DNA of 64,000 nt, taken from NCBI GenBank assembly GCA_017499595.2, contig CM038999.1:434001-498000 (forward strand). The letters are read 5' to 3'. Every line of letters starts with the position of its first letter. Position 1 is the first letter of the stretch. A model generated the notes under the pieces. It did not search any database. It had not been told where the DNA came from and saw only the letters and a program-made list of their open reading frames with translations. The DNA is from Psilocybe cubensis (lineage: Eukaryota). Below are positions 33,766-62,233 of this stretch, piece after piece. A program made the translations under genes and the position numbers.

Positions 33766-35412
33766 TCACTCTTCATTGTCCTTAGAGTCACTCCTGTATT
33801 TTCTTCCAGCGTGCACAAGAAAATCTTCTCCGTCTCTTCCAATAAGCTGAAGTTCAACGCCGGATCTTTGAATATTCAAGAGCTGCAAAAATTGATCTTG
33901 CTTCATTAAATCTCCGTCGTGTACTAGAGGCCGAAGAACTTCATCTTTGTTAACCAGCTTGAGAGCAACCTTAGAAAGCGACCTTCGCATAGGCTTTACG
34001 AGGTACGAATGAGGAGACTTCTCTGTGCCATGGTACGCGATACTCGGCGGAAACATGTCAATGAAGCTATTCCAACGATCGGGCTTCATAAAATAGATTA
34101 ATTGAATCTCCAGGATCTGTAAGCTAGGGAAGAGGACAGAATCATCCTCCGCGCCATATCTGAGTTCACGTAGAGTGTCGTCGAATGTTTTAGGGCTGAC
34201 TTTAAAAGAGTCTACGTTGATCCTCAAATGAGTCAGAGGGGGGTATCGAGAGTGCCATATAGAAGATCCTCTAACTGACCAAGGTCCAAGACCTTCATGA
34301 CCTAACAGAGTCATACCGTTACAGGCTTGCAACTCAAGCATCACGTTTTGAATTGGCATTATTGCATGCGATCGCTCGAAAAATTCCACAATCTCTGTCT
34401 CCTCGCTGTAAAAAGAATCCTCCCATGCCCCTTTCGGATCTAACCGGCATACCAAAGTTTTCAACGATGGAAAGCACAGATATTGAAGCGCATCTTTGAC
34501 GCCCAGTAAAGACATTTCCAGATGTGTCACGGAGCTATTGTGAATGCTCTTCCTTTCGTTGGGAAGTGTTATGACATTTCCGTGGATATGATAGCGAAAG
34601 GTGTTTAACCTAATCGACTTTATTACGATTGTTTCAAGATTGACAGCGTGGTTGACGATATGCAGAACTAGTTCAGCATCGATGTCGTCCACTATGAGAT
34701 GCCGCAAGTTGTCCCATTGGAGAAAGTTTAAATCATGAAAGTGAACGAGCGCTCCGGAGATGGTCTGTGCCTCAAATTTATGAGGTCGGAGAGGCTGAAA
34801 CATGGGAACTTCCTTCCAGAGTGATCCGTACACAATACGTAAATCTTCGATCCTTGTGGTGTCCTTGAGATTTTTAAAAATTTCATAAAGTACATCGCAG
34901 TCGACCTTGTAGAGAAAGACTCGATTCCATCGCGCGGAACACGTTCTAATGAGATCCAGGAGAGGTTGTATATCTTCTAACGTAACGCCGCCTGAGCCTC
35001 TTCGATGTCGTACAACAAGTGATATAGGAAGGCCTCCCGAGCGAAAAATCCGTTTTTGAATAAGATTTGTGAACTTGAAATCCATGCTCGGGTTGACGAT
35101 GAGAGTAGTCCACAACTTGGGGGTCCCTAAAATGACATCTCTCCAGTTCTTGCATACTTCGCCTAGAATGACTAGAGGAGACCACCGGTGGTTGCGATTG
35201 CCTTCTGAAGCCTCGGAATATCCTTCCTCGTACCCACTTGCCATCGCCAAAATTTCTGAAAGTAACTCAACCGCTAGAGCAGAAATCGGGGAGGCTACAA
35301 TCGAACGACCGTAGCTACCAACGGATGCATCCTGACGATTTCCAGGACGCATGTCTTCAGAAGTAGTACTGATTATCGACGGCGCTGTGGTTGGAAGCAG
35401 CTGCTGTGCCAT
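33766..35412 (-). CDS. Intronless F-box-like protein with LRR-like C-terminal region
   Basis: SPISALAVELLSEIL...LGEVCKNWRDVILGTPKLWT F-box signature; ARW, FPSLKTL, FPSLQILEI repeats; uninterrupted ORF. Confidence 0.82.
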   Translation of the reverse strand: MAQQLLPTTAPSIISTTSEDMRPGNRQDASVGSYGRSIVASPISALAVELLSEILAMASGYEEGYSEASEGNRNHRWSPLVILGEVCKNWRDVILGTPKLWTTLIVNPSMDFKFTNLIQKRIFRSGGLPISLVVRHRRGSGGVTLEDIQPLLDLIRTCSARWNRVFLYKVDCDVLYEIFKNLKDTTRIEDLRIVYGSLWKEVPMFQPLRPHKFEAQTISGALVHFHDLNFLQWDNLRHLIVDDIDAELVLHIVNHAVNLETIVIKSIRLNTFRYHIHGNVITLPNERKSIHNSSVTHLEMSLLGVKDALQYLCFPSLKTLVCRLDPKGAWEDSFYSEETEIVEFFERSHAIMPIQNVMLELQACNGMTLLGHEGLGPWSVRGSSIWHSRYPPLTHLRINVDSFKVSPKTFDDTLRELRYGAEDDSVLFPSLQILEIQLIYFMKPDRWNSFIDMFPPSIAYHGTEKSPHSYLVKPMRRSLSKVALKLVNKDEVLRPLVHDGDLMKQDQFLQLLNIQRSGVELQLIGRDGEDFLVHAGRKYRSDSKDNEE

Positions 35413-35617
35413 CTTGTAGGCACAACCGTGGAAATGCCAGTGGTGAATCACAACGAATGCAATGGGTGGTCAACCAAGAAACAGAGTCCAACTTTATATA
35501 CAATTCAAGATACCGATTCAGGCCACTCTTCAATAAAATGCCAATGGTGGCCTCAATATTTCCGGAGGCCCACAGAGGCCACAGGTCGATGGAAATAATC
35601 TTGATTGATTAAAAAAG

Positions 35618-35691
35618 TGATTCGACCCAGGCTCGAACTGAGGACCTTCTGTGTGTTAGACAGATGCGATAACCAACTACGCCATCGAACC
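35618..35691 (-). tRNA. tRNA-Val(AAC), identical to the copy at 31659-31732
   Basis: Exact reverse complement of the 74-nt tRNA at 31659; followed by T6 on the minus strand. Confidence 0.95.
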
Positions 35692-39759: not shown

Positions 39760-40427
39760 TTTTAATCGTTATCGTTTCTTCTTTTTCAAGTAGGTCCGTC
39801 GACTTGTAACGACTGAAGGATAATAAAAAGGAAGCTTAGAGAGAGATATCCTCTACCAGATACAGAAGAGAAAATAATGGAAAGGAAAAGAAAAAAATGA
39901 TGCTGATTCAAGTGCACCGTAGGCGTTCAGTGGGACGTATCTGCGAAAAAAAGGTGGCACGTGCTGATAGTTCTGGGACCCGCGCCGTCAGTGCCGTAAA
40001 GGCGTGGGAATGTTGACTAATGGTGCCATTGCCTCCATGCACCTCCGGCGAGATCACTTGTTAATCAATGTCAACGCTCATCCTTCAAAACGCCTTTTAG
40101 TTTCATTTTTGACACAATAGCAAGCCATTACGTGCAGGGAAAGGATACTTAAGCCAATACTTCCAGAGGGCCAAGTTGGATTGCGTGTTCTTTAAAGTGT
40201 CGTGTTTCTGTTTTTTTTTGTGGTGGTGAGCCGTGCTCTTAAGTCTCCCTGCACTGCTCAGAAGTAACCACAGCCTCCTCTGGGAAAAATATTATTGTGG
40301 TACCCGGTAGCTCATGACACAGCGTGATATCAATGTAGTCATGTAGTGGTTGATATTTCTGCTCACCACTACTCGCTCTTGAGTTATAACTGGACTTTCT
40401 ATTGCGTCTCGACCTCCGCCATCTGCT

Positions 40428-40745
40428 CACATAAGACAGTTTATTTATAACGTACATTACCTAAGATTTAATAATAAGGATATTACGTGACATACGGTGG
40501 ATTTACTCCCGCTACCTAATTAGGAGATTAGCGTGATGTACGTGTGATTTAGCCTGGCAAATCATAGCGTACATGACGTGCCATTTAGCGCTAAATGGAG
40601 CCGCCGGGTGGCCTGCGGGATCCGCGCGTCTACCTACACGGAAGAAACACGGGCCGGAAATGAGCCGGACGGGTCCATTTGCATCCCGTGTATTGCAAGC
40701 AGACGGATCCGCTTGACCCGTGTTGTGCTGTCAGACGGACCCATT
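40428..40745 (+). repeat. Left terminal inverted repeat (318 bp)
   Basis: Reverse complement of 55841-56158 with no mismatch found by eye. Confidence 0.95.
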
Positions 40746-40870
40746 CATCCATCCGCTTCTGTATTCCGACAAATATCCGCCTTGAATCGTACATTGGATG
40801 ACCGTTAATATATGTAATAAGGTGTATAGATTATACTGGCAGCAAATTCCTTTCCACATACCCTGATAGT

Positions 40871-42150
40871 ATGGATTATGCCTTTGAGCTAACCCAATCC
40901 CTCTCAAACTACATGAAGGCAAAGATAGCTAGTCGTCTTTGGCATGCAGAACTGCCTAATCAAATCCGGGAAAACTTCAGTGCTGAGACCATGTTTGAGT
41001 GCAATCTAGCTGTGGAGGTGATTTTGCAGGCATTTGAAAATCAAGGTATGCAATCAATAAGCTTTGAAAATTGAGATTAAATAATGTGTGAATGGCAGAA
41101 TATACGACGTGGGATGCAGAAGAATATTTGACCCATCTCAGCGCACGTTGCACGGGTCAGAATTCTGCCGTTGAGGCTCGCCTGAAAGACCAGTTTCCTC
41201 CGGTGCATTCCACGTTACAGTACCAAACCCTGCCCGGAACTGTAATTGATAGTGCAGGCAACATATTGGTGTGGTACCTGCCAGGTATTTTGTCAGAGAC
41301 AAGGGTGGTGAGTTTTAGAAACGGACCGATTAATTCCTATATTATGCGTTCTAAAGAGTAACAGGAGAGTGTGTGGAATTCATTACGGGATATTGAAACA
41401 ATGATTCACAAGGCGGCACCTTTGGCCACAAGCTGGAGGGTCAATGACAGTTACTTTCGACATGAGCCAGGTTGGCTTCAACCTGGAAATCTTAACTTTT
41501 CCCCGGCATGGTTTCAGCAAGGCCATGAGGTGAGAAACTTGTTTGCTAAGTATTATACTGCCTCATATTTTCCTCAGACGTCCAACCCGCTTGAGGTCTC
41601 CTTGGACTTGTGTAATCCTATTGGACAGGAGTTTATACGAGACATGATGACATCTTCGGCTTTGCTGGGAGCCATCTTGAGCATTATACACCCCGAGCAG
41701 TACCGGGCGGGAATAAAATTTCTTCAACGGCTTGCTGCGGAACCGGAGTTCGTCCATAAGGCCGAAATATTGAAGCAAATTCTCACAATATGGAGTTCGC
41801 CCTTTGGAGTCATGACCGCCATCAGCAACCGAGATACACCGTACCATCGGGATAATGGGTCATGCTACTCATGGTACGATTTTTTGATGCCACTTGGGAA
41901 GGGTGAACACGGACGGCTTGAGCTTCCTGGCCTTGGACTTCGGTACAAGTATGATCCCATGACCCTTGTTGCAATTACCGGCAGGTTGCTTCAACACGGC
42001 GCGGTGTGCGAGGGAGATAGGGCAGTCATAGTCTATTACATGCGTAGGAATGTATTTAAAGAGCTGGGAGTCCAAGAGGCGGGATGGTCTACTACGTACG
42101 ATCTTTTTGCAAATTTACCGGCCACCAACACTTTTGATTTTGAAATATGA
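40871..42150 (+). CDS. TET/JBP-family 2OG-Fe(II) DNA base dioxygenase (transposon-borne)
   Basis: ILVWYLPG, NFSPAWFQQGH, NRDTPYHRD (HxD), LLQHG (distal His), GDRAVIVYYMR (2OG Arg); three GT-AG introns give an open frame. Confidence 0.85.
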
Positions 42151-42377
42151 TCAGTTTTTGACTTGGAAGTTGGGTTTGGGGAAGATTTTTTTATATTTCC
42201 AAAACAAAACGGTACGAAAGCTACAGAACAACCAGAATTCTCTGTCCCAGGGTGTTTCCGACGCGCCCGCGCTGAGCTCTTCCAAGGTTACCGGAATCAT
42301 CGGACTCCGCCGTCGTATTACCGGCGGAAAAGGCATCATCCGCCTCCTCTTCGATGTCCTGTGCGAGAGGTGGGCAA

Positions 42378-44002
42378 CTAAGATTCCTCATCCCAGGGTG
42401 TTTCCGACACGTCCTCGCTAAGCTCTTCCGAGTTACCGGAAGCATCTGACTCCTCCGTCGTATCACCGGCGGAAGACTCCTCATCCGCCTCCTCTTCAAA
42501 GTCCTGTGCGAGATGCTCTAAAAACGTAGCTGGTGTAGAGGATTCAGTGGTATCGGACGTACTATCAATATCATCCTCTTCTCCCGGGAAAACAGGTCTT
42601 GACCTTGCGTTAAAAAGGAAGGCATTGCTGGTGTGTGCATTTGACGGAGGGCTGACGGAACCGGGAGTAGGCAGAGTATCTGTTGGGAGATGAATATTTG
42701 CAGTGTTGGAGGGTGGCGAATGATACCAGAGTGGATGAAAAGGTAGTTCCTTGACGGCAATAAAAGAATAAAAAATGTCGTTGATGTAAAATGAAGCGAC
42801 TTTGAGCTTTGAGACCTCGAAGGACCGGGCTTGAGCCGTTATAGCGCCCCAACTGTCAGGAGAAGGGTGAACGGGATGCTGAAATTTGTATTTGGCTGAA
42901 AGCCCCTTGCCGTTAGAGAACGGGTGCTCCTTAGAGTCAATCCACATCTTCTCCAATACAGAATATCTGCCCAAGGCGGCCGAAGAAGTAGTCACTGCTT
43001 TATGGGCATTTTTCATTTTGTCCGCCACATTCCGGCGCAGGTGAGCCAACTCCCTCATTACGCCCGTTAGGATAGGCTGACCGCAGCGGGGACAGTAGGG
43101 CGGTCTGTGGTCAGAAATTGCAATTGGGGATGTTTCATCCCGCGTGTTTGCAACACGGGTCGGCGGATTGGGTTTCCCCGTGGGCGGTGAAAACGCGGAG
43201 CCATGCTTTCCCGTCAACGCGGATCCGTGCTTCCCCGAGATGGGGACGGATGTCCGTTCAGCCGCCTTTCCCTTGCCCTTGGGATTGTTTTCCTGATTTC
43301 TTGGAGGCCCAGAGGTAGATGAACTTGCGCCCTCCTTAGCTTCTTTCCTCTGATTATTTAGCCGGAGTACCTCTTGTTGGTATTCAGGCAGAACCACCTG
43401 GTGGGAAGGACGCAAATCAGATATAATCCACAGCAATAAAAAAACATACCTTGTTCCAAAATTCTCTTGCTTGCGATTCAACGGTAACAAAGGCAACTTG
43501 CCACTCATCGCCTTCAGCAAATCCGTCCCTCCACCAATATCCCCAGCTCTTGGTCTGATTTAAAATTTCATCATCTTCCCATGCTGACCAGCTTTGATTT
43601 AGAGATTCAAATAGAACAGCTCGATGGTGGGGAGTTCGGTTCAAAACGGCATGTACGCTCTGATTGAGAATTTCTGATATAAAAAATGGAATATCGACTT
43701 GGAATCCATTGACATAGCAGTATCCGAGTACTCTCAGCAGTATAGCCTGACGACCAGTTCTCAATACAAGATATAATCGTTCAAAATTACTGTCTTACCA
43801 CCTCCAGGTCAAGCAAATACATCCATTTTTGGCGACGCACGGAGGAAACAGAGTCTCCGTTTGCAATGAACAAACGGTATCCGGCACGGATCCGTGCACC
43901 ACAAATATGGACATGAACTTTGGCCAGAGCACGTCGCTCATCATAGGTAAGGAGATGATGTTCGTCCTCGACAGGAGGTTTAAAAAGCCGCGGTAAGTGC
44001 AT
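42378..44002 (-). CDS. Transposon cargo protein of unknown function (3 exons, CPRC motif, acidic tail)
   Basis: ORFs 43787-44071, 43417-43764 and 42378-43520 join in frame through two GT-AG introns; start MHLPRLF is inferred. Confidence 0.65.
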
Positions 44003-44046
44003 GAATTCAACGAGATGGGATACAACAAGAATGTTCAAAGAACTGG

Positions 44047-47000
44047 TTAATCTGTAATTATAAATCTCCACACGGACGGATACTCCGGGTTAATTTGACG
44101 GAAGACCTTATCCGCGGCCCGCCCCAGATCATTCCACATGGCAATCTGCTTTTGAGCATTTGCCCTGTGACCAACTAACCTGTCAGGAACAAAATCATGC
44201 CGTGCACGCCATGTCTTTGCCATATACACATAAAATCTGACAGTCCATTCCATTTCCTTTTTTGTCAAGGCCAGCTCCTCTTGCCATCTATTCCTCTGAG
44301 CTCGCGCGCGGAGCCAGTTTAGCCTAAAGACTAAGAAGCCCTTGAGAAAAAAATTAGAAATACAAATAGCAGTACTCACACTCATTAACGTATAATTGAT
44401 TATCATTGTCCAGGCCCTGACGGGATCTCCAAATCCAACTTAGACGGTCCGAGCTTCCTCCGCGAATGTTCGGATCCGACACGGCATTACTATGCTTGCA
44501 ATCATGGACTTGCAGAATGGGATATTGTTTCCGAATATTATCCTCGTCTCGCACGCCAGCAGATAAATAGATCATCTTCTGACGGTTTGTGTTGTAGAGT
44601 CGCCGGTGCAATTTCCAGGAAGCATTCAAAAGCTTGACGCCATCCCAAGCACGAGTCCCCATATAGACGGAGTCGGCGGTCCGAACCTGATATTTATACT
44701 GCCAAGAAAGCTGGATCAAGGCTGACCGGACCGCTTCCAGACAGTCCTCTGCGTGGCCATGTCTTATTTGAAGTTCAAGTTTGCGAAGCCCTTTTAAAAT
44801 GAGGTTTGTTCCCGCGTCAAGGCCGTCAAAGAAATCTTGTTTGACGGCGGAGGGAAACGGAAGCGGCTGTCGTTCCGGATCCGCGCGGGTAATGTTGACA
44901 TTTCCAAGATCAGGATCGTCGTTGTCACTGACTTCATAGTCAAGTATGGGAGCGATGTCCCCTTGAATATCCTCCAAGACATCTTTGCCCATGAAGGTCA
45001 TAGCGGATCGACAGAAGGCTTCAACGCGGGTCCGCATGGAGCGACGTTTATTGACCAAGTCAAGTTTCTGCGCGGTGGAAGGATGCTTTCCGAGCTTTCT
45101 GACATGGTCCCTGAGCTCCAATCTAAAAGCATGTTAAATTCTGTAGGATGCAATTGAAATAATCGTACTGCGCTTGCTCCAGTTTTAAGCCGGATGATAT
45201 CCATGCTGCCTTTCCAGTAGCACCATTAGATGTAAGTTCCATATTTGAAAGATGCAATTCAATTTCTTGGCGTCCAGCAGCCGTTTTCACTTTGCTTGCC
45301 ATTACCTTGCCAACAGCGTCGGCCACACCTTGTTCTCGGTCCGCTTCTGCTTTTGAAATTTCATCTTCCCAAGTGTTGATGAGCCCGGAATCTTGTTGAT
45401 CCGTGATACCCCTATAAAATCGGTCTGTGATTCCGGACTGTTCCCGTGCCCGTTTGAACTTTGCAGCAATTGTTGCAGCCATATTAATGGTCTTCTTCCA
45501 GTTGGAATCCCCCATGTGGTCGTCCAAAACCTCTGCTCGATGGGCAGTGGTAGCGGAACGTGTACTCCGGGATGTGTCATTTAACACGGACCACAACGGC
45601 TCCAGGATTTCTCCGTCAATGATTCCCACACCCGGGACATAGGTGGATGCGTAGTTGTAAAGACATTCCGTCTTGTGCCCGTGGACGTGAAATAAACCAA
45701 TTGCAAAAATCATTTTAACAGAAGGTGGCCAATGCATTTTTGTGGACTCTGAGAGACGCCTTGCCAAGTTAATGCAATATTGACAGTTTATATCGTAGAT
45801 TTCCAAATGTTTTGTGATTCCCTGTGTGTTGGTAGTTTCCCTGGCCTGAGTCAAAGACCAATCCATGTGCATCTGCTTTTCGCCTTTGTCAAAATCGACA
45901 ACGCTGGATGGACAGAAGCATCCGTGCCTAGCGCAAGCGTGTGCCCCAATTCCACGTACTCTCTTACCCGGGCTGACTCTGTTTTCAGCTTTCTGGGCGT
46001 GGTAGTTATGACATGTTTGTTCCTGATATTTTTTTACACGGAGGATAAGCCATCCGCCGTGGAAGATTTTTTTGACACGGAAGGGAAGCATCCGCCGTGG
46101 AAGATTGTGACACGGAACGTAAGCATCCGCCGTGAAAGATAAATCATGGTAGATAACGCACCCGTTTATAACGTGGAGCAAGAGAAATTGCTTCCTTGAT
46201 GTGCTCCTTGTATGGGCCCGGAGCAGTCATGTATCCTTCTCCAACGCTCAACCAAACATCGTCTCCCTCGTTTTTCTGATTGAGGTGATCTGCTTTGAAA
46301 TTACCATCTGCAACATAACTACGTATGTACAGATTGCTATTTGCTGTTAATTGCAGTCACCCTTGAAGAATAACTAAAACTTGCCTGTCAGCATCATCAA
46401 TCCAGGTATCAGGTAGGTTTATTCCAGGCTGTGGACAGGCGGGGCAGAATAAGGCCAACTTCCCTCTCCTATCTTCAACTTTGGGATGATCCTCGGTCCG
46501 CGTCATTTGTGGTGCAGGCGGACCATCTAATCCGCCGTGTCCCAGAGACGGGTCCGTTGACATTCCGACTTCTTGAGACGGACTATCAGATCCGCCATCA
46601 ATTGGATCAGATACATTAATACCCATCCTCTCTGGTGATGAATCATGGCAATGATGATAGTAAGGGACCACCGCTTCTCTTGTATGCCCTTCTCCGTATT
46701 GTCGTCTCAGGACAAGGTCCCTGTATTCTCTACTAAGCCTTCTCAATTCACGATAGCGGTTCAGCACCTTTTTTGGAAACGCTGGCGAAGTCAGTCTTCG
46801 CAACTTTTGGTAATACTGATAAGCCGACGTTTTGCACTCGAGGTTGTCCATCCGAAAGTCCTCAAGGACCTCAACTGTGAACACAGTTTGAACGTTTTCA
46901 AAGCTGGCTGCAAATAATCCCATCTCCAGATACTGTAAATCGATAGACGGAAGGCGGACGGACCGGCATGTGCATGTTCGCACGGGCAGATAATGGACTC

Positions 47001-47969
47001 CGGAGGTGTGCACAATTGCCTTGAAAGGAATTCCATTGTTGTCTGCTGCCTTTGGACGAGGTTGGTCCAGATAGGTTGTATCGACTTCCTCGAATAGATC
47101 ATCATTTTCATCGTCTCCATCGTCCAGCTCAACCAAATGGGGTACCTCCGGGTCCGCCAGAAGCTGAGCCGTAAAGGATTCTTGGTCATTGCTCGCAGGA
47201 AGCGGATCCAGGTCCAATCCGTGTTCATCCTCAAAGATGGGCGAATTGTTTCCGCCGTGCCCATGACTCCCGGATGAATTGTTTCCGCCGTCGCATCCTA
47301 GATGGCTCGGATCCGTGGGATAAGGACACCGCTTCCCATTATGACCCAAATACAACTTGACACCCACTTCCCACAGAGCTCCCGGACGGAAATATAGACC
47401 CGTCCACTTCTCAACGCGGTGGAAAGGTGTAAATTGATGGTTTCTTCGCAGGCATTCAGAACACAAAATTCTAGAGCCAAAGCATTGGCAACATCTCCAC
47501 ACTCCAGACATTCCTTGACATTGCTGACACCGTCCATTCAGATCCGGATCCGGGGCTTCTCCTCCAATCATTGTTCCAAGATACACCTCTCGTTTCGGGA
47601 GCCATTCCCTCAGGTAATCATTTTGAGACTGGATAGGTAAAGTCATCCTGATCATTCTACTGAAAACATGTTAAAACATACCTTTCCTCCCGTTCTGTCG
47701 TCATCTAGCTGTCTCAGGTTATCAAGTACCTGCTGATCAGTTAGATCTCCCGGATAATGAGGTATTTCTTCTTCCAGAATGTTGTGTTCATGGTTTTGGA
47801 AAGAGTAAGTCGTTGTTTGAGGGAGGTTTGTTGATGATGATTCTGCAGGAAGTTTGTGGATCCTCGGCCGCCCTCTCTTTCGTTTCTTGGCCCCACTAGA
47901 CCAGGAGGCCTCCCGAACATTGGGAAACTCCTCATCCGATCCCCTATCAGGTACTTTCTTGAAGCCCAT
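44047..47969 (-). CDS. KDZ (Kyakuja-Dileera-Zisupton) transposase with CxC2 cysteine cluster
   Basis: CxxC..CxxC..CxxC..H..PFHRVEKWTG, VHTSGVH...CTC, CPACPQPGINLP, DGNFKADH, CARHGC, DFDKGE, YDINCQY, FHVHGH..C, DGEILEPLWS, WLRARAQRNRWQEE; five introns, one of them GC-AG, give a continuous frame. Confidence 0.92.
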
Positions 47970-48848
47970 GGATGTTGGAAACAAAGAGTCTGACAGCCTG
48001 TGAGCGCAGATCTAAATGTAGTATAACATGTTTATTTCTGTAGATAAATTTCCCTCAATTATGCCGTTTTAAAGAGGAGAAAAATAGCTTTCATATGATC
48101 TATCTTGCAGCATATTTGGATGAGTGAGTGAAATGTTATGAACAAAACTTAATCCAGAGATGCACAAAATGGACGTGATCCCATCATAAATGTACAATAT
48201 GATGCAGAACGACCCTTTCAGAACCACACTTTGGAGTGTTTTTGAAATATCTTTTCACTGGCTGGCCCCTCATTCCTCCGGCGTATATCATATGAAAGAT
48301 ATTTTTAATAGCTACCGAATGACATTTTTTGTAGAATGTGAATCCTCGTATTTAAGGAGATATTCTCAATATACTAGAAAATGTGTCAAAATGAGCTCAC
48401 TGGGATCATTATATTTTTTGAAAAAAATTATGCATTTGAATACCTCTCATGGTCTCTGAGATGACTGCCGTTTTGGGTTTCACAAGTTTTGGGTGAGAAG
48501 ACGTGAATTTGAATTTTGTGTTTCTGTATCTTTACAGCCATCTAACAAGAATTTAAAACCTTGTAAGATTATCTTTATATAAAGCGCTAAATGTTTACAA
48601 AATTTCATGTTTATTGATTGAGTGCAGAGGGAACTATTGCAAAATCATGAGGTCAATGTATGTGACAGCGACCAGCATGCTTTGATCATCGTGGCCGACG
48701 ATGAAGCGGGATTACCTGATTGGGAAAAATATGACATCACATCATTCATTTAGTATGATCGGAAGCTTATTTTATCTCCGTATGACGTGAGATTTGACTA
48801 GATCACACAGATACTCATCGATAAGCTACTTGTTACATCGCTGCAATT

Positions 48849-51159
48849 ATGCCCACCATTGCATCCCCCGACGCGGATCCGCTTCCTTCCACCGCAAATG
48901 CCACAACCCACAACGGACCCAGAAGCGGACAGACGGCGGAGGGTGACTTTCCGCCGGAAGAATCAAATATATGGACCACAAAGGAAATGCGCGTGTTGAA
49001 AAAGCATGTACAGCCCTACAAAGATACATCAAAGTCATCCAAAGCAGACTACATACAGAACACTGTCATACCTGAGCTGCAAGCTACATGGGATCACAGA
49101 TACTCTAGACGTGCTAGGAAGGAAGATAAGCAACTACACAAAGAATGGAAGGTGAAGAAGCATGTGAGCTCGTTGTTTCTTTGAAAATTTTGTTACACAC
49201 ATAAACCATCACAATAGCGAATTTTTAATTGGTTTAGAAACCATGCGTCAAATCGAATTGGTGTAAAATTGGAAGGATTGAACTCCCGTATAACCTTTCA
49301 GACGGTATTCCGTGAGGAGAAGTCGGCAGAGATTGACTCCGAGGTTGCGCTTCTATCAGGGAATGCTGCTCGTGGAAGTAAAGATTGGATGAAGTTTTAT
49401 CAACAAGGACGTAAGCAGGTTGAGGCCAGATTGACTCAGGAGGAGCGGGACAGGTTCATGGAGATCCTTGAGGAATGGAATAAGAAAGGTGTTTCAAAAT
49501 CAATGAAGGCAAAGTGAGTCGGTGGAACTTGTTTCCGCCGTCAATCTGACATCTGCAGGACTGCTGCCAGGCAAGGCAGAAAAATACTTCGACAAATGGA
49601 GAAACTTAAGTGGCAGAGAATGGGTATGAGGTCCATTACCTTTGAGGGGCATTATGATATTGAGGGTAAAATCGAATACTCAATGTAAGTGTTAAACACG
49701 GCATGAACAAGTTCCGCCGTGAATGCTTACGGCGGAAACTTTATCCGCCGTAAACACCCTACGGCGGATAAAGTTTCCGCCGTAAGCATTCACGGCGGAA
49801 TAATTTGGCCCGTATTAATGTTGACTGATGGGCATTGAAGGACCCAGACAAGCGATCTAGCACTCGACGATGTCAGAATTCCTTCCTTTGGGCAACTCTT
49901 TCCATCCGAGTTGGCCGCTTTTCGCAGAGCGTTTGTTCAATACCTCGTCCACATTTCAGAAATAGAGAAGGGTGTGGCCAATCCAGCACTGCCAGATGCA
50001 TCGTTTCATGAAAAATCCCTCAAGTTTAGCAGCAATGGATTTCCAATAGTACCTAGTCCTATCTATGGCTCAACTGGGAGAGAAGTCGCTTATGCGCAAA
50101 AGTCAATTATTAGAATTTACATGAACAAGGTTTATGGTGTGTAATTTGTCTATGTCCTCAACAAACTTGCTAACTATGTATACAGCTTTAGCCAAGGATA
50201 GGCCTGGTTCAAGTGTTCCTTGGGATGCTCTTGAAAGGCGTTCTGCAGAAATGATTGATCCAGAGTATTGGCCAAGTTCAATCCCCGTGACGGATCCGAG
50301 CCGGCTCCGCCTGGAGTCAACTTCTGCAATTCTCAAGCTATGGAGGGACCGTCAAGCGCAAGGAGACATCCCCTTTAAATTCTCAAAGGTTTTTGGAAAT
50401 GGCTATGACATTATGGAACCTCTCTATCCGTCCAACTTGTTTGACGGCCTAGAAGCCCACCCGATACCTCCACCTCCTGCAGCCATAACCAAACGTCGGC
50501 TGAGGCAAAAAGCTATACGACTTCAAACCCAATCTTCAAGCGACTCTGAATCATCCAATCTGTCAGAGTTTGATAATGGACGGGGTAGTCCGGCATCCGC
50601 GATGCCACGCACTACTGCCAGATTTGAAGTCACGCCAGAGACGGATGAGACTCCTACCGACGCACCTTCAAGATCTAGCGAGCCACCCTCTCTACCAAGT
50701 AGATCCAGCCCAACAATTGTCAATCCATCATCCAGCCCAACTCCAGAGGTTGAGGAGGCGCCTCCCAAGCCAGCTAGAAAGATTATGCCAAGAAAAAGAA
50801 CAAAGCCATATGTCGGAACGGCGGAAATGGACGGACCCGATGAAGAGAGTTCTGTACCCCCCCCAGTTAAGCCAAAACCAACTAGAAGGATTCAACCTAG
50901 GAAAAGAACAAAGCCCTACTCAGATCCACTTAACACAGTGGAAGAAGATGGAGTCCAAACAGGAACAACCCAAGACACGGATAATACACGGGCCGGCAGG
51001 GACGTGACTTGTGATGCCTTTGTGGAGACAGTAACAAGTCCAGATACGGATGAAACACGGGCCCGCAGGAATGTGACTTCGGATGCCTTAGCACTTCAGG
51101 AAGCAAGTCTGCTTGCTGTAGCAGGTAAAAGACAAAGAAAAAAAACTTTGAAAGCCTAG
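48849..51159 (+). CDS. Transposon-associated putative DNA-binding protein (homeodomain-like plus HMG-box-like), multi-exon
   Basis: RIFNWFRNH helix motif, YQQGRKQVEARLTQEERDRFMEILEEWN HMG-like segment, basic repeated tail; GT-AG introns join the ORF pieces. Confidence 0.6.
49712..49800. repeat. Perfect 41-bp-arm palindrome with 7-nt loop, inside an intron
   Basis: 49712-49752 is the reverse complement of 49760-49800; contains six TCCGCCGT/ACGGCGGA copies. Confidence 0.93.
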
Positions 51160-51437
51160 CTGTTGAAGTAGATTCATGATACCTATTGAATGTGATGCTT
51201 TTTATTCTTATCTTGATGTTTCTCAAACATGTTTTCACACAAAATCAAAACAGAAAGCGGGGTTCATTAAAAATCATCAAGTGCTACTTTTTGGGAGAGG
51301 TATAAAACAGATGAGCACATGAGAGTAAAAACTATATACAGTCCAAATGATGAAAAAATTGTATAGGGATGTGAGCAATGTAATATATGACAGGCAAAAA
51401 AGGAGACCAAAAAAAAGTTACAAAGAATTGAAATACA

Positions 51438-53990
51438 CTACTTTTTTTGGGCCTTGGATTTTTTGGGCGAGCGCGATGCTTCAGCCAGAGTCGTTTCCGC
51501 CTTTCGCTTTCGTCCAGCCCTTGTCTTTGTGGCTATGTTCGACGCGGGCAGCGTGGACGCCACGATCTCAACATCCTCCTCCTCCACAATTTCAACCTCG
51601 TCGCTGTCCGAGGGATCAGACAACTCCGAAGAGTGTCCATTCCCGGATGGCCCAGCCTTGGAGGATGGCTTAGCCTTTGACAATGGCTTAGCCTTTGAGG
51701 ATGGGCCGGCCTTTGACGATGGTGCACCCTTTGACAACGGTGCGGCCTTTGACGTCGAACTTCGAGGACGTGGAGCTGGGAGAGGGGGTGGTGGAGACAG
51801 GGAAAGGATGGGCGGTACCGGTGGGAGCGAGGGTCGGCCAGCTGGGGGGGGCGAAGGCGCTTCCGGAGTCGAACCGGGCAAGAATAGCGCTGTTGGTGGC
51901 GCAGACACGGCAGGGAGGACGGGTGCGGGTGGAGGTGGGGGAGGGGAAGGGAGGACAGGTGCTGGCGGTGGTGGAGGAGGGGAAGGGAGAATGGGTGCTG
52001 CTGGAGGTGGAGGTGGGGAAGGGAGGGGTGCTGGCGGTGGTGGTGCGCTTGGGGATTGTGGCACAGAGGTGGGTTCACGGGTCCGCGACGGACCCGATTC
52101 TTGTTCGACCTCCGTCTTGGAGGGTCCTGCTGCCTGTTTGGGGGCGGGATTCCTTTGTTCATCCTGCTCCAGCAAATCGTCGACCACATCTCGGACGTGG
52201 TTGATCCTCTTGGTGATGTCGTTGAACATCGTGACGGAAAGCGAGGTGCTTCCTGCCACTTGTTCTTTGGCCATGGTCCATTCGGCCTTCACCTCTTGGA
52301 TGCCGTCCTCGATGCTCTTCATCCTGTTCTCCACCGCCAAGTTCGTCTCGGCAAACGTCGCAATCCGTGCATTAATCGCCGTCATGGACGCGGATAACCC
52401 GTCCAGCCGTTCCATGATTCTGCCTTGGCGCTCAAAGAGCTGCACAAGCAGTTCTCCCACATCCTCGGGGAACGACCCTTCCCCGGCCTTCCCCTTCGCC
52501 GGAACATCTTCTCCCTCCTCCAACTTCAACGCCTCCCCATAGCTTCCCAGTGGCGTCGTCAAAAATTGACCCACGAAGGTGTTGCGCCCCGGGTAGAAGC
52601 TGCAGTGGATCTTGCGAGACTTGCAAGACTCGCAAGATTGGTGCTTCACGGGGACGAGAGGCTCAGTGCCTGTCTCCCCCTTGACATAGCATGGCACCTT
52701 GAATTTGATGCATGCCGTGCACCTTTCCACCATGTCCACCATCCCCTCTGGCACCTGGCGCACTTTCTGGGATCTCGACCGCGCCTTCCTGATGGGGGGG
52801 ACATCGTCCTCGGTGTCCTTCTTTACGGAACGCGTGCGCATCTTCCGGGTGGGGGTGGCAGTGGGGGTGGTAGGCGGTGCCCCTTTGTTATCGCCTTCGT
52901 CGTCCTCGTCGACGTCCGCGTCCGCGTCTTCGTCCGTGTGGCTTCCTATGATCGCCTTGCTCCTGAATTTCCCCTGCTTGGACTTCGCCAATCTTTCCAG
53001 CTTCTCCCTGTACGCTGGGTGACCGGGCATGTTGGAGGCGGTAATGTGGGGAATAATTTCCCCCTTCTTTGTCCGTGGGCCCCTGTAATCCGCTGGAGCC
53101 AACTGAATGGACTCCACGGGGTCCGCCGCTTTCCGTTTGCCCTTGTCTTTGTGGGCGTCTGTCACGGGTCCGTCTTCCACCGGGGGTTCGACTGCCTTGC
53201 CCTTGCCCTTCTCGGCCCGTCTCTTCTCCGTCTCCTCCTTGTTCCTCTCCTCGTCTGTCTCCTGCTCCTGCTCCTGCTCCTGCTCCCTCTTCCTCCTCTC
53301 CTCCGCCTTCTGCCTCTCCTGCTCCCTGGTCCTCCTCTCCTGCTCCCTCTTCCTCCTCTCATCCTTTCTCCTCTCCTCCACCTTCTGCTTCTCTTCCTCC
53401 CTCTTCCTCCTCTCCTCCTCCCTCTGCCTCTCCTCCTCCTCCTCCCTCTGCCTCTCCTCTTCCTCCTCCCTCTTCTTCTTCTCCTCCCTCTTCCTCCTCA
53501 CCTCCCTCTTCCTCCTCTCCTCCACCCTCTGCCTCTCCTCCTCCTCTTGCTCCTCCTTCTCCCTCCTCTTCTCTTGCTCCTCCTCCTCCCTCCTCTTCCT
53601 CTGTGCCTCCTGGCCTTCCTGGTAGGCCTTGAAGTTGGCGACTTGATGTTTGAGCGTCGCCCAGTCGACCTCAAACCTGTAGATGTTCTCGCCGTCCTTG
53701 CCCTGGATGACTTTGTACGAGTAGACAACGGGGCTCGCAACATAGTCAATGAGCCGGAAGCGTGCGGCGTCCCTGACATGCTCCTGACACAATGGAACCT
53801 ATTGGAATTTTTTTTTTTTTGTTGAGCAAGTCATGATCTTATAAAATTGAGAACTTACCAAGTCCCTGTAAAGCTGCTCCAACTCAGCGTTGAACGCGCT
53901 TTCACCGTTGCGGTAGCACTCGGTAAACTTTTTTTCCCAGTCAGCGAGGCGTTGGGCGAAGGTGGCGGTGGTGGAAGATGAAGCGGCCAT
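51438..53990 (-). CDS. Transposon cargo protein with Zn2Cys6-like cluster, Glu/Arg-rich helix, coiled coil and Pro-rich tail
   Basis: C-x2-C-x6-C-x18-C-x2-C-x6-C (CTACIKFKVPC...CESCKSRKIHC); first exon MAASSSTT splices to VPLCQEHVRD; C-terminal RKRK/PKKSKAQKK NLS-like motifs. Confidence 0.72.
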
Positions 53991-54296
53991 TGAAAAAAGC
54001 GTGTTTTTATGGGGGAAGACGCGTTAAAGTGGTGAGGCACGGTAGAACGTGAGGGTGGTGATCGTGGTTGGAGTTAGTCTAAAAAAAGTCTAAAAAAAAG
54101 CGGTCCCGCAAAACAAAACCATACACAAACATGTACAATCTGAGTCATGTGATTTCTTCACCAGATCCAGTTTGTGCAAAAGTTGCTAAGTTCGATACAC
54201 GGGTGAATCTATTTCCGTGTCATGGAGAATCCTTGGATAGTATTGTATTCCGTGAGATATATAAACAAGCCCACCCAGTTGCACTTTCTGGACTGT

Positions 54297-55762
54297 ATGT
54301 CCTCCTACAACTTTATTCCCACCTCTAGCAAAAATTCCCCCATTGACTACACCAGTCTCAACAATCTTACCAGGCTTCTTGAAAAACTGAAGGAACCTCC
54401 TCCCGTAAAACCTATAAAATGTAAGACTAATGGCATTAATTCAAGTAAATTTTAATTGATTTCTGAGCATCAGCAATGTCTTCAAATATTAGCAACTCTA
54501 AGGAAAGCAAACGCACAGCAAGGACGGATGACCTGGCTCCGCCGCCAATGCCAGTCATTCCAGATAACCTGGCTCCACCCCCTATGCCTGTTATTCCAGA
54601 TAACCTGGCTCCTCCCCCTATGCCAGTCATTTCATCTAACCTGGCTCCGCCCCCTATGCCAGTCATCCGGAAAGACCTGGCTCCGCCGCCAATGCCAGTA
54701 ATTCCAGCTAACCTGGCTCCACCCCCTATGCCTGTTATTCCAGCTAACCTGGCTCCGCCCCCTATGCCAGTCATCCGGAAAGACCTGGCTCCGCCGCCAA
54801 TGCCAGTAATTCCAGCTAGCCTGGCTCCACCCCCTATGCCAGTCATTCCAGCTAACCTGGCTCCGCCCCCTATGCCAGTCATCCGGAAAGACCTGGCTCC
54901 GCCGCCAATGCCAGTAATTCCAGCTAGCCTGGCTCCACCCCCTATGCCAGTCATTCCAGCTAACCTGGCTCCGCCGCCAATGCCAGTCATCCGGAATGAC
55001 ACGGCTCCGCCGCCAATGCCTGTCATCCGGAACGACACGGCTCCGCCGCCAATGCCTGTCATCCGGAACGACACGGCTCCGCCGCCAATGCCAATCATTC
55101 CAGATAACCTAGCTCCTCCCCCTATGCCTGTCATTCCACCTACCCTGGCTCCTCCCCCTATGCCTGTTATTCCAGATACCCTGGATCCTCCACCTATGCC
55201 TGTCATCCGGGATGATGTGGCTCCGCCGTTGATGGCAGCACATGTTTCATACACGTCTGTCGTCGACAAAATCATTATGGACTCTCGTCCAGCTATTTCC
55301 TCTGAGAGGAAGCAAGGTCGCTATTCTCCACCCCCTGAAGCATGCCACCTGCTCCTTCAAAACCCTTATTTTCGAACCTACGGCAGGTTTGATCCCATGG
55401 GCGGCTACCCCGGTTCGCCTCCCACCCAGTCTGACATTGAGTTCGAGGATGTGACAGATCAGACGGCATATTTTAACCCTCCTTTTCTATATGTATGCAC
55501 TCAGATATTACCAAGCACTAGATACTGACAACTATTTTAGAATTATACCGAGCAGCAGCTACGGGCAACATACGACCAAATAATCGACAGTTCCGTCGGC
55601 GACAATAGTTATGACAGCAAGGTCACAACGTTTAAGAACCTCCGCCTGCATCAGCTGCAGTCAGAAATTCTGACTTATAATGCGCTGGAGGAAATTGACG
55701 CTGGGCTGGCAGGGATTGAATCGAGTTTGGAAAAGCATTTGTATACCGGTAGAGATGAATAA
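54297..55762 (+). CDS. Transposon cargo protein with about 20 proline-rich 12-aa repeats and a helical C-terminus
   Basis: xxLAPPPMPVIx repeats; GT-AG introns at about 54421-54473 and 55492-55540 keep the frame to TAA at 55762; start could alternatively be 54222 or 54476. Confidence 0.62.
54527..55234 (+). repeat. Coding minisatellite, 36-bp unit, about 19.7 copies
   Basis: Repeated ACCTGGCTCCnCCnCCnATGCCnGTnAT; partial 108-bp higher-order periodicity. Confidence 0.95.
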
Positions 55763-55840
55763 ATTATTTTTGGAGCCCTTGTGCTCATTGATTCGCAATA
55801 CCTCTCAAATATCCCTCCCTCTCTGGGAAGATACGGGTCA

Positions 55841-56158
55841 AATGGGTCCGTCTGACAGCACAACACGGGTCAAGCGGATCCGTCTGCTTGCAATACACGG
55901 GATGCAAATGGACCCGTCCGGCTCATTTCCGGCCCGTGTTTCTTCCGTGTAGGTAGACGCGCGGATCCCGCAGGCCACCCGGCGGCTCCATTTAGCGCTA
56001 AATGGCACGTCATGTACGCTATGATTTGCCAGGCTAAATCACACGTACATCACGCTAATCTCCTAATTAGGTAGCGGGAGTAAATCCACCGTATGTCACG
56101 TAATATCCTTATTATTAAATCTTAGGTAATGTACGTTATAAATAAACTGTCTTATGTG
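55841..56158 (-). repeat. Right terminal inverted repeat (318 bp)
   Basis: Reverse complement of 40428-40745. Confidence 0.95.
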
Positions 56159-56233
56159 ATCTGCTCTATTTTGTATACGTCGGTTAATCCTCTATTAGCC
56201 TTTTTTCCGAATTCTTCAACGCAATCCACCCAT

Positions 56234-59261: not shown

Positions 59262-62233
59262 CTAAGAAATGCGCATATGAGCGAATAAAGTCATCATGGA
59301 AGATATTGAAGAACTAACCTCTTCATCGGCACGATCAGAACTCCACGCAGTAAACTGGAAATTCTTTCTGGTCATTAAGATTGTTTCGGCGATGGCTAAT
59401 TGCGGTGATTTGCTGGGCAACGAGTAGTCCAATTCGAGTTTGATGTTACTTGGAATACCAGCTTCTCTAGCATGCTTGAGAACGACTTCTTCAATGCTCA
59501 TCTTGCTCTTCCGATAGAAAGCTACCTTTACATGTTTTAGGAGCTTATACGAGCTGAGGGGTGAGGGGTCCATTCTGTTGATAATGAACTCAAGCAAGCT
59601 TACGTCTTTCAGAGCAGCGACCTTGGCCGAAATTTCCAGTGTCTCCAAATTCGGAAGAAGGGGCTCCGCCCCAGAGGTGATGACCATACAGTTGAACCCC
59701 TCTTAACCCATACCTCTCAAAACCCATAACCCCTGGTAACCCATAGCATCAGCTGTCCACCAACTTGGTTCGCAGGGAATTGCACACCATAACCCATAAG
59801 TCCGCAATAACCCATAACCCATACCCCTTCGCTCTCAAAACCCATAGGTTTTACCTACCATATATAGGCTGGGACCTTTACTTTTGTGTCAAAATTTAGT
59901 ACGCCGGTGGCTTATTTGGGTAATGTACCACTGAAACCTCCTCGTAGCTACAAAAAATGAAAAAATTTCGCCGGAGACACACTGGCTTGGAAACTTCGGC
60001 AATCATTCGGCAAAGAATTTTTCAACCCCGCTCCGTTCTTACCAAATACATCAGCGACATGGACAATCCTACTGCCCGTACAATTGAAACACTTTTGGAC
60101 TCATTAAATAGAAAACTGCACCTTGAAGAGCCAGAACAATGAAAGATACTGTAGTAACTGATTATTTTAGATCATAGCTAGTAGTACCTTAAATGTATCT
60201 AATTGGTATCCGTCTTGTCATCGAGGAATTTTTTGTGTATTTTTAACGATTTTTTCGCGAATTTTCAGGCCTGTTTTTAGCATACCTCCTGAAACCCATA
60301 ACCCCTGATAACCCATACCCTGAGCCGTCCACCGAGAGGTATGGGTTAAGAGGGGTTCAACTGTATCAATAAACACATCCCTAAAATTCCACTTGGTGTC
60401 AGATAAGTCGTCATCATAATATGTATACAATAATGGTAATCGTCTGCCCCACTGGTTGGTAGTCGGGGGTGTTGAGATTCCATAGACCAGATGTTTCACA
60501 GAACTTGCCGTACAAAGAATTTCAGAGACCTCTGCATTGGTAAAGAATTGGGTACTGAGCGATAACTTCCACAATTTATCGGCCTTTGAGATAAGCCTGC
60601 AAATGGGGGGTGTTCGGTGGTTATTGACAAAGGGAGCGTGAGTGAGAGTAACAGGCGGATTAACCTGAGGAACATGGGTTGGTATATTGACACCTAGAGG
60701 GTTAGCTTGGTTGGCCTGACCCGGCGGATTAGCAGGAGCATGCATAGGTGGATTAAGAGATGGATGGTTCGCAGCATGGGCCGGAGCATGGACCTGCGGA
60801 TTAGCAGAAACATGACCCGCTAAATTAACATGTGCTTGGAAGGTTGGTCCGGAAACAAGCTGAGTTAGATTATGGATGGCCTGTAGATGATGACCCAGCC
60901 CACCCGCAACCGAGTTCACATTGTGTGGGGTGGAGGAGGAGGAGGATTTTGAATGATATGACAGAACTTCAAGTTGAGGGACAACGAAACTGTCGTAGAA
61001 ACTACAGAGAATATTTGAGGCTTGATCCGAAACATACAATGCCCGCAGTTCAGGAAGATGCAAAGGTGGATACAAAACATCATTACCGTTCCACTCTGCT
61101 ACGGTTGGAACTAAAATCATCTTCAAGTGAACAAGGCGAAAACATTGGGCAAGTGTTTTTGAAGCTTCCAAAGTAGATATGTACGAATGCAGCGATAAAT
61201 GAGTGAGCGTTGCCCAAGGAGAAGCCACCTTTGTTATGAAGTCAGGAGGCACATGGAGCGAATACCTTTTCAAGTCAGGAGTGACAAGTTCAGAGTTAGG
61301 GATATCCCGTGGGTGGATTAGATAGTTATCCCATTCCCCTTGATTATGATGAGATACTCGTAAAGTAGCGAGATTTCCCAGTGGCATTCGACCGATAGCA
61401 GCAGCTAATGTGGCATATTTTTGTACCGGCATCGTCAATTCAACATTCTGCCATCGGTGTGCTTCGACAACCAGGTCCATTAGTAACCTTCGCGAGAGAT
61501 GTGAACTCTTGGAATCATCCTGTGTGCTGGTAGGTTGGTTATCTGAGTAGAGGAGTGAAAAGGATAAAAGGCAGGCCCTCGACCGCCGAAGCCATTCTTC
61601 TACCATTTCACATTGGATATGAAGTCTTTTTATCAGTTTGGCCGTACGAGATTCAACTTTGGAACTGTCCATCAAGTCGTCTGAGGATGAAAGTGCGTCG
61701 TCGTATTTCGGACGCGTGCAGTTGAAAGTAATGTGCATCCTGGCCCACAAAAGGGGTGATGACAGTGCGATGGACCTCCAGAAGCTGCATACATGAGTGA
61801 GGAGCATTGGTGCCCTAGTCGTAGATAAGTCATGATCACAGTCGTTGTCGACGCAGTGAAAGAATATTTCACGAAAGATGTCCGCAGGAATTCGGCGAAT
61901 TGGCGACATGACGTTATTGTAGCAAGATATGGTTTTGTCAACCTTCCTTCGTTTATCCCTTAGACCCTTTAGCTGCATTTCGAGGGTCAGTATCTGCGAG
62001 TCAAGAATCTCTTTCTCCTGCATTGGCTTTCCCAAGAGTCGCTGTACTTCAATAACAGCGGGTTGCTTTTTGTATTTTGTTTTCTTCGTGTTGGTTGCTC
62101 TGACAGTGACAGTAATATGCATGATTTTGACAAGGCTAGAAGCGTGAAATCGAGCATGCAGATTGCCTTTTATTCTAATTCTCGATGTGCATTGTGCAAC
62201 AAGTTGTGGATTACCGCTCCTCAGGATCTGCAT
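59262..62233 (-). pseudogene. F-box-like gene interrupted by a MITE
   Basis: Coiled coil then SPIRRIPADIFREIF...LTHVCSFWRSIALSSPLLW; removing 59689-60363 plus one TA restores VFID-MVITSGAEPLLP in frame; start codon and 3' end uncertain. Confidence 0.78.
59689..60363. mobile_element. Tc1/mariner(pogo)-type MITE, 675 bp, 30-bp TIRs, TA TSD
   Basis: CAGTTGAACCCCTCTTAACCCATACCTCTC at 59689-59718 and its reverse complement at 60334-60363; TA at 59687-59688 and 60364-60365. Confidence 0.92.

Follow-up and report, generated by a model that had tools for sequence, protein, structure and literature searches.

A complete Kyakuja-type KDZ transposon of Psilocybe cubensis carries numerous copies of a short CGG-based DNA word that is almost confined to the element. 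We analyzed a 64,000-nucleotide window (assembly GCA_017499595.2, contig CM038999.1, positions 434,001 to 498,000; coordinates below are those of the window), in which the 15,731-bp element occupies positions 40428 to 56158. The word TCCGCCGT or ACGGCGGA, hereafter the motif, is found in 19 exact copies, 18 within the element and one outside. An earlier sequence-only reading had listed at least 15 copies in the element and a single one outside, at 30300, and had proposed a self-targeted anti-silencing system in which an element-encoded protein reads the motif and recruits the element's own TET enzyme. All 15 listed positions were recovered together with three more (44844, 50818 and 55222), and 30300, which falls in the coding sequence of a UTP25 homologue within the 48 kb of host flank, is the sole outside copy. 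When all 6- to 10-mers were compared between the element and its flanks, TCCGCCGT was the top-ranked 8-mer. We propose that such words are most likely family-specific cis words that would act as binding sites for a factor encoded by the element.

Dinucleotide shuffles of the 64-kb window yielded a mean of 1.03 motif copies and a maximum of 5, and the observed number of 19 was reached in 0 of 100 shuffles. The enrichment persisted after collapsing local duplications and correcting for composition, the combined check that the sequence-only reading had set for itself. Keeping one unit per local duplication reduced the element to 14,690 nt, in which 9 copies were left in comparison to 0.28 to 1.15 expected from element-trained Markov models of order 0 to 3 (P <= 3.5e-6). 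With order 4, where the 5-mers of the motif itself are already part of the model, the expectation is 2.17 copies (P = 4e-4). Additionally, we shuffled synonymous codons over 9,360 nt of in-frame exon, preserving protein and codon usage. Six exonic motif copies were observed vs. a mean of 0.43 and a maximum of 3 in the shuffles (six reached in 0 of 1000), and the related word CGGRYCCG was present 15 times vs. a mean of 1.44 and a maximum of 6 (15 reached in 0 of 1000). The signal therefore resides at the DNA level and not at the protein level. The exonic copies lie in three reading frames (encoding Ser-Ala-Val, His/Asp-Gly-Gly, Thr-Ala-Glu and Ala-Pro-Pro-Leu) and run both with and against the direction of transcription. 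On the grounds of orientation, reading frame and synonymous shuffles, we rejected a cause at the RNA or protein level.

Exons and introns were placed using annotated paralogues and GT..AG borders read in the sequence, and the introns are predicted. The KDZ transposase gene (42378 to 47969, minus strand, at least seven exons) was delimited by tblastn with the annotated, 98% identical paralogue P0004 and contains KDZ and CxC2 Pfam domains. Gene X (48849 to 51159, plus strand, five exons, about 668 aa), which is divergent to the transposase gene, was placed by the annotated paralogue P0128. Based on these paralogue models, three introns account for 10 of the 18 copies, one copy lies in a duplicated 3' flank and seven are exonic, three of them in low-complexity linkers, in line with the earlier description of copies mainly in introns and linkers.

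The previously noted local duplication of copies could also be traced, to a three-unit array, an 89-nt palindrome and duplications of 33 and 145 nt. The array (46028 to 46140, plus strand) sits inside a 136-nt transposase intron (about 46026 to 46161) and is built of 35- to 38-nt units, each reading ACACGGA-N9-ATCCGCCGTG, with motif copies at 46053, 46091 and 46126. The perfect palindrome (49712 to 49800; 41-nt arms, 7-nt centre) in intron 3 of gene X consists of three WTCCGCCGT-N8/9-ACGGCGGAW units and holds six copies within 49713 to 49799. Each intron-array unit pairs ACACGGAAG, a word of the terminal inverted repeats (TIRs), with the motif. An origin of the palindrome as a miniature inverted-repeat transposable element (MITE) or other nested element was rejected, as it lacks a flanking target-site duplication (TSD) and array length varies between contigs. 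Intron 2 of gene X, 44 nt long, contains a single copy (49534 to 49541, plus strand). At the 3' end of the transposase gene, a 145-nt tandem duplication (42245 to 42513) spans the final codons; its coding unit reads TCCTCCGT, and the downstream, non-coding second unit contains the exact motif (42306 to 42313, plus strand).

The exonic copies of the transposase gene are found at 44844 to 44851 (minus strand, codons Ser-Ala-Val), in a linker at 46531 to 46538 (plus strand, His-Gly-Gly), and in a 33-nt duplicated linker (47251 to 47291, plus strand, HGGNNS / DGGNNS) with copies at 47251 and 47284. Two further exonic copies, both encoding Thr-Ala-Glu and both on the minus strand, lie in exon 1 (48933 to 48940) and exon 5 (50818 to 50825) of gene X. 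The copy at 55222 belongs to gene Z, an open reading frame (ORF) at 54467 to 55528 (plus strand) with 19.5 copies of a 36-nt repeat coding LAPPPMPVIP, which also holds eight TCCGCCGC words; no homologue of gene Z was found in the 80 related loci described below. The outermost 1.9 kb on the left side of the element and 0.9 kb on its right side are free of the motif, and the divergent promoter region between the transposase gene and gene X (47970 to 48848) holds zero copies. This AT-rich promoter contains a 23-nt imperfect inverted repeat (48080 to 48306) and none of the CGG words.

The motif is part of a wider CGG signature. The degenerate palindrome CGGRYCCG occurs 18 times inside the element, including once per TIR, and twice outside, CGGATCCG 10 times inside and once outside, and ACACGGR 22 times inside and 7 times outside. 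CGG-triplet words (the motif, CGGRYCCG and ACACGGR) are in roughly 10- to 40-fold excess in the element, and they may constitute a small set of recognition words. Both CGGRYCCG and CGGATCCG have the inverted CGG-N2-CCG layout that is expected for a dimeric reader. The density of CpG is equal inside and outside the element (48.1 vs. 48.2 per kb), while its context differs: CGG reaches 32.7 vs. 20.3 per kb and CGGA 13.7 vs. 5.9 per kb, and TCG/CGA contexts are depleted, with TCGA at 2.2 vs. 5.2 per kb (0.42 of the outside density). In 2-kb bins, the fraction of CpGs in a CGG/CCG context amounts to 0.47-0.70 inside and 0.24-0.48 outside, and the switch coincides with the element ends. The bin 32001 to 34000, which holds another inverted-repeat element, leans to CGG/CCG as well (0.48).

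The sequence-only reading had predicted that related KDZ families carry different motifs, which was borne out in metagenome loci. Metagenome contigs were scanned with an alignment of 14 transposase sequences, resulting in 80 loci, and in sequences of at least 5 kb, 8-mers were scored against an order-2 model after masking of tandem repeats. The scored set comprised 41 KDZ sequences (40 metagenome loci and the Psilocybe element). The top 8-mer reached log10P <= -8 in 17 of the 41 and a value between -6 and -8 in 9 more, and all 26 top words at log10P <= -6 contain CGG/CCG. Several of the top words are palindromic, and many lie within coding sequence. The best score in composition-matched simulations was -6.3 (n = 123), and only 26 of 163 simulated top words contained CGG/CCG. 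Top-word scores in four host-flank chunks of the window ranged from -4.2 to -6.2.

Among the word cases, CGGCGCCG in locus L014 was observed 29 times (0.30 expected), CCGCGGCA in L004 24 times (0.44 expected), and ATGCCGGA in L061 and L064 23-24 times (1.1-1.4 expected). CCGGCGCC was detected in L028 and L049 (7 observed vs. 0.18 expected and 9 vs. 0.44, respectively), and L016 and L023 share the consensus CCGASTCGG. The word of L042, TCCGCCGA, which is one letter off TCCGCCGT, occurs 10 times (0.52 expected). On a quick maximum-likelihood tree (IQ-TREE) of 68 transposase cores, for which 13 of the 81 sequences were excluded as shorter than 300 residues, a well-supported clade of 13 rows holds the strongest word cases, and sister lineages differ in their word (CGGCGCCG, GCCGCGGCA, CCGASTCGG, CCGGCGCC and TCCGGCAT). 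The flanks of the words are unconserved in the relatives; therefore, the words are dispersed and do not reflect hidden repeats. In several loci, they are spaced evenly along the whole contig, including coding sequence. In the transposase ORFs of L014, the word was counted 16 times in comparison to 1.01 expected, a number reached in 0 of 500 synonymous shuffles. For the transposase ORFs of 15 further loci, the observed count was reached by 0 of 300 shuffles in seven loci and by 1 of 300 in three. A different arrangement was seen in L066, a KDZ relative of 35% identity, with 32 copies of GCGGCGGT embedded in the longer unit ACAATGCGGCGGCGGTGA (11782 to 13689 and 15134 to 15927 of that locus). 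All of these copies lie to one side of the transposase gene, in blocks that are oppositely oriented, and none is in the transposase ORFs.

The element is bounded by a 319-nt inverted repeat of 100% complementarity (40427 to 40745 and 55841 to 56159). The TIRs proper comprise 318 nt, the left one at 40428 to 40745 (plus strand) and the right one, to which it is 100% complementary, at 55841 to 56158 (minus strand). Both the ends of the element, CACATAAG...CTTATGTG with 5'-CA..TG-3' termini, and the 7-bp TSD ATCTGCT (40421 to 40427 and 56159 to 56165) were read directly. CGGATCCG occurs once per TIR, and the inner 110 nt of the left TIR are dense in ACGG[GA] words. A 22-nt word of the inner TIR, ACACGGAAGAAACACGGGCCGG (40636 to 40657 and 55929 to 55950), returns twice with 86% identity at 50975 to 50996 and 51044 to 51065, in both cases within a coding repeat of 69 nt that lies at the 3' end of gene X. 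The transposase matched the KDZ DDE domain (PF18758, E = 6.4e-38, 131 bits with a cut-off of 26.6) and the CxC2 cysteine cluster (PF18803, E = 1.4e-21). A 7-bp TSD and CA..TG termini characterize Kyakuja according to section 3.2.1 of Kojima 2025 (PMC12730594), and both are present here. Based on TSD, termini and an AG-type TET, we assign the element to the TET-positive Kyakuja.

The family has many copies: clusters at 90% identity contain 39 transposase, 22 X and 10 Y sequences (Y being the third gene, see below). Every one of the listed cluster members (15 transposase, 15 X and 10 Y) is named P. cubensis, and consecutive locus tags of the members repeat the gene order transposase-X-Y. The element is a young, many-copy Psilocybe cubensis transposon. 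A second KDZ family (P0005, 53% identity) is present in this species as well.

Variation between family copies was read from assembled contigs mapped on the element, in which array joints may represent assembly collapse. Contigs of run X2 drop array units at the joints 46028>46068 and 46071>46115, and a joint 49728>49792, supported by a depth of 632, skips 63 nt of the palindrome. In the repeat region of gene Z (54527 to 55227), one X2 contig skips 326 nt. The majority of X2 contigs carry G at 46597 (A>G), which makes 46591 an exact motif in the family; the copy in the window, with one mismatch at this site, lost the motif by a CpG-to-CpA change. Among the variants listed, a low-depth TIR variant shows 6 CpG transitions among 7 changes. 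Older family copies thus decay at CpGs, and methylation probably acts on the family. Contigs from runs X10-X12 are short and near-identical, and are uninformative on deep conservation.

Three element-encoded proteins were considered as candidate readers of the words. The N-terminus of the transposase contains six Cys and two His that are nearly invariant in 14 KDZ transposases, in the pattern C-x2-C-x8-C-x2-C-x6-C-x2-C-x4-H-x5-H (P0004 residues 130-166, window positions about 47530 to 47420, minus strand), upstream of the Pfam CxC2 domain. We take this pattern to be reminiscent of a ZZ-type zinc finger. The transposase N-terminus is the only candidate common to all word-bearing families.

The main ORF of gene Y (51438 to 53798, minus strand; its first exon lies upstream and is unmapped) encodes a charged E/R/K region, the cysteine pattern CX2CX6C-x19-CX2CX6C, a long helix and a Pro-rich tail. 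In the AlphaFold2 model, a single long helix spans residues 112-177 with a predicted local distance difference test score (pLDDT) above 90. The match to Zn_clus covers profile positions 1-14 only, twice. Of the Zn2Cys6-like protein that the sequence-only reading had suggested, the paired cysteine triads followed by a long helix can be recognized in gene Y, but neither the Pfam assignment nor a wider distribution could be confirmed. Gene X homologues were detected in at least 17 of the 80 loci, in each case upstream of the transposase gene and in divergent orientation to it. The model of its exon-2 domain (mean pLDDT 72.7) retrieved mostly HMG boxes as best rows of a VIA wide search, all of them weak (Z <= 5.2; SSRP1 HMG 5.2), and aligned with 6l34_A over 61 residues at an rmsd of 3.0. 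The HMG-like protein of the sequence-only reading thus has a weakly HMG-box-like counterpart in a conserved gene. A fragment alignment of gene X (A3) was poor (mean column identity 10%) and was not used. Database look-ups of Y and X returned only unnamed Basidiomycota clusters.

The element does encode a TET/JBP dioxygenase, as the sequence-only reading had stated. Its last, catalytic exon (41362 to 42150, plus strand; exons upstream of 41362 are unmapped) matches PF12851 with E = 3.1e-19 and the structure of CcTet (7vpn) with E = 7.8e-27. An HRD...H motif is present in the translation, and the iron-binding HxD...H residues H162, D164 and H212 are invariant in an alignment of 8 sequences. Gene X (residues 100-440) and the TET exon, folded together as a complex without a supplied alignment, gave a score of 0.09 and a mark of 0.34. 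Among the 80 related loci, 21 had a TET match, and the occurrence of the words clearly extends beyond TET-bearing lineages. The strongest-word clade lacks a TET match and TET therefore cannot be the general effector, although the contigs are partial and do not prove its absence.

Taken together, we favor a scheme in which the motif, CGGRYCCG and ACACGGR are cis words selected at the DNA level. Intron words would have grown into tandem and palindromic arrays, with others placed in the 3' flank and in exons, and together the words would mark the element over its full body as a member of its own family. An element-encoded, probably dimeric and sequence-specific DNA-binding protein would read them. 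The cysteine-rich N-terminus of the transposase is our preferred reader because it is the sole candidate present in all word-carrying families, followed by gene Y and then gene X. The likeliest output would be that the element controls the state of its chromatin, methylation or transcription (anti-silencing), with its TET as one possible effector. That the words are bound by a protein, which protein this is and what the binding does are our inferences from sequence patterns, and we give the scheme as a whole slightly less than an even chance. A bolder version would see the words as a KDZ-wide palindromic CGG/CpG "barcode" that extends into coding sequence, with a co-evolving zinc-cluster-type element protein licensing anti-silencing of its own family, by TET oxidation of 5-methylcytosine (5mC) where a TET is carried and by protection from methylation where it is not. 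We regard this version as rather unlikely.

Several observations weigh against the favored scheme. With regard to the words, exact TCCGCCGT is missing from the TIRs in a count over the whole window. The transposase ORFs of L002, L007 and L066 lack the word, and those of L045 and L049 carry it without exceeding synonymous shuffles. The relatives are metagenome contigs, several of them duplicates of one family, and only two of them have known element boundaries. The 48 kb of host flank are the real-DNA control, and the remaining controls are simulated. With regard to the readers, gene Y stays below the threshold for Zn_clus (PF00172; 19 bits, E = 0.0016, cut-off 21), its cysteine region is modeled with low confidence (pLDDT 54-70), one relative (P0125) is without the first Cys triad, a set of 1.84 billion representatives contains no more than 5 relatives, and the gene was found in 0 of the 80 related loci. 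Gene X had no Pfam match and no Foldseek match at E <= 0.001, and its HMG likeness lies under the tool's stated chance range. With regard to the effector, none of the 13 rows of the strongest-word clade, whose contigs are partial, had a TET match, and 9 ORFs searched in L014 gave no Tet_JBP match.

The words could instead be functionless and reflect a CGG-rich CpG context, a context-dependent bias of mutation or repair, and the growth of minisatellites and palindromes in introns. The skew of the whole element to CGG/CCG with its depletion of TCG/CGA, the origin of 10 of the 18 copies from three local amplifications, the array length that differs between contigs, and the prediction of 2.2 of the 9 collapsed copies by the order-4 model would all fit such a by-product. 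However, neither Markov models of order 0 to 3 nor synonymous shuffles with preserved codon usage account for the enrichment, and specific palindromic 8-mers, 20- to 100-fold in excess, turn up again in relatives, where their flanks are unrelated. Further, the words of sister families differ, which a shared host mutation bias would not produce. We consider such a by-product quite improbable. Fungal Zn2Cys6 proteins classically target pairs of CGG triplets, be they direct, inverted or everted. The words might thus be sites for a host zinc-cluster factor, with the intron arrays acting as enhancers that tie the element to a host programme, and the position of the arrays in early introns of two divergently transcribed genes would suit this role. 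Yet one word per KDZ family fits better to a co-evolving, element-encoded reader, the 48 kb of host DNA contain one copy, within the UTP25 coding sequence, and the divergent promoter is free of copies; such a host role seems very improbable to us.

Another explanation is that the transposase uses the words for transposition itself, in end recognition, synapsis of the 15-kb element or cis preference, with no role in silencing, comparable to the subterminal repeats of Ac and En/Spm. CGGATCCG and ACGG[GA] words in the inner part of both TIRs, the return of the 22-nt TIR-internal word at 50975 and 51044, the pairing of ACACGGAAG with the motif in the intron-array units, and the presence of words in KDZ lineages with and without TET are in agreement with such a use. 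On the other hand, the motif is missing from the TIRs and from both outer parts of the element, and in several relatives the words are even over the whole contig, coding sequence included, and not near the ends. Two Kyakuja families of L. bicolor (Laccaria) are without TIRs in the passages of Kojima 2025 (PMC12730594) searched, so internal words could define ends; on balance, we hold a pure transposition role to be unlikely.

Recruitment of the element's TET by a word-bound reader would be plausible. As a full account, in which 5mC is oxidized across the element and the family is thereby kept unmethylated, it would draw on an intact TET ORF with HRD...H that is related to the active CcTet, on a CpG in all 26 top words at log10P <= -6, on the decay of older copies by CpG transitions, a sign that methylation probably acts on the family, and on the extra exact family-consensus copy at 46591 that was lost here by CpG-to-CpA. 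Transposon TETs have also been proposed to counteract methylation in the passages of Kojima 2025 (PMC12730594) searched. Against this account stand the strongest clade without a TET match and the detection of TET in only 21 of the 80 related loci. The same passages speculate that AG-type TETs are not target-specific, since oxidized 5mC marks retrotransposons too, and we find the full account doubtful. Of the self-targeted anti-silencing proposed by the sequence-only reading, what holds is the notion that an element factor would read family-specific cis words, with TET as a possible effector; the proposal is weakened by the strongest clade without a TET match, by the low Zn_clus score and narrow distribution of gene Y, and by the lack of the word in the TIRs.

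Two other repeat structures were observed in the window. At 31659 to 35691, a second inverted-repeat structure has 81-nt outer arms of 99% identity at a distance of 3.9 kb, with nested inverted repeats of 80-185 nt at 31977 to 33136, and encloses a 567-aa ORF with a sub-threshold F-box-like match. A MITE-like unit of 681 nt (59686 to 60366) has perfect 33-nt terminal inverted repeats and internal AACCCATA-type repeats.

How a transposon-borne TET is directed is an open question, for which the passages of Kojima 2025 (PMC12730594) searched speculate that there is no target specificity. A word that exceeds codon shuffles and varies between sister lineages offers a concrete handle, as it defines probes, candidate readers and the CpGs to inspect in methylomes. 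If element proteins read the words, this would be, within the literature searched, the first sequence-specific self-recognition system in fungal DNA transposons, and a source of short orthogonal targeting modules. If the barcode version were true, it would represent an independent fungal counterpart of VANC and supply natural orthogonal word-reader pairs for targeted demethylation. Even as a mutational by-product, the words would be a compositional signature for delimiting KDZ families. In the literature searched, we encountered no account of DNA words in KDZ elements, and the passages of Kojima 2025 (PMC12730594) searched do not mention them.

With the TET-encoding Agaricomycete Kyakuja, as described in these passages (PMC12730594), the Psilocybe element shares the CxC2 KDZ transposase, an AG-type TET related to CcTet, the 7-bp TSD and the CA..TG termini; unlike the two L. 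bicolor families, it has perfect TIRs of 318 nt. The words resemble Zn2Cys6 (Gal4-type) sites, since CGG/CCG pairs occur in direct (ACGGCGGA), inverted (CGG-N2-CCG) and everted (CCGCGG, CCG-N3-CGG) arrangement, and gene Y has two CX2CX6C triads (six Cys) followed by a modeled long helix that could dimerize. In contrast to Zn2Cys6 proteins with their signature CX2CX6CX5-12CX2CX6-8C, the linker between the triads of gene Y measures 17-19 instead of 5-12 residues, its Pfam score is below the cut-off, one relative is without the first triad, and Y is absent from the other word-carrying KDZ families.

In En/Spm (CACTA) elements, TnpA reads many subterminal 12-bp motifs that contain CpG and occur in both orientations, and couples transposition with release from methylation. 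The Psilocybe element is similar in having a conserved accessory gene (X) beside the transposase gene and a short CpG-containing word in many copies and both orientations. Unlike the subterminal TnpA sites, the motif is not found in the TIRs and is scattered through the element body without subterminal clustering, the transposon superfamily differs, and gene X has no similarity to TnpA detectable by Pfam scan. TnpA is described by Sasaki et al. 2026 (bioRxiv 10.64898/2026.08.24.746577) as a transposon-encoded transcriptional regulator derived from a transposase.

By mode of action, the closest analogue would be the VANC/VANDAL21 system. In Arabidopsis, according to the part of Hosaka et al. 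2017 (PMC5735166) consulted, the word YAGTATTAY is enriched in the VANDAL21 family targeted by VANC21, its targets grow by tandem repeats, words are family-specific, and density rather than a single site matters, a feature that we count as shared. Likewise, the Psilocybe motif is short, concentrated in a single transposon family and rare outside it (18 copies inside vs. 1 outside in this window), its arrays have grown by tandem repetition, and the words of related families differ. The VANC words are AT-rich, non-coding and in one orientation in that source, whereas the KDZ words are based on CpG/CGG, run in either orientation, form palindromes in many cases and extend into exons. Further, the KDZ element carries a TET and no VANC homologue is involved. 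Binding and hypomethylation have been demonstrated for VANC (PMC5735166), whereas the KDZ words are known here from sequence.

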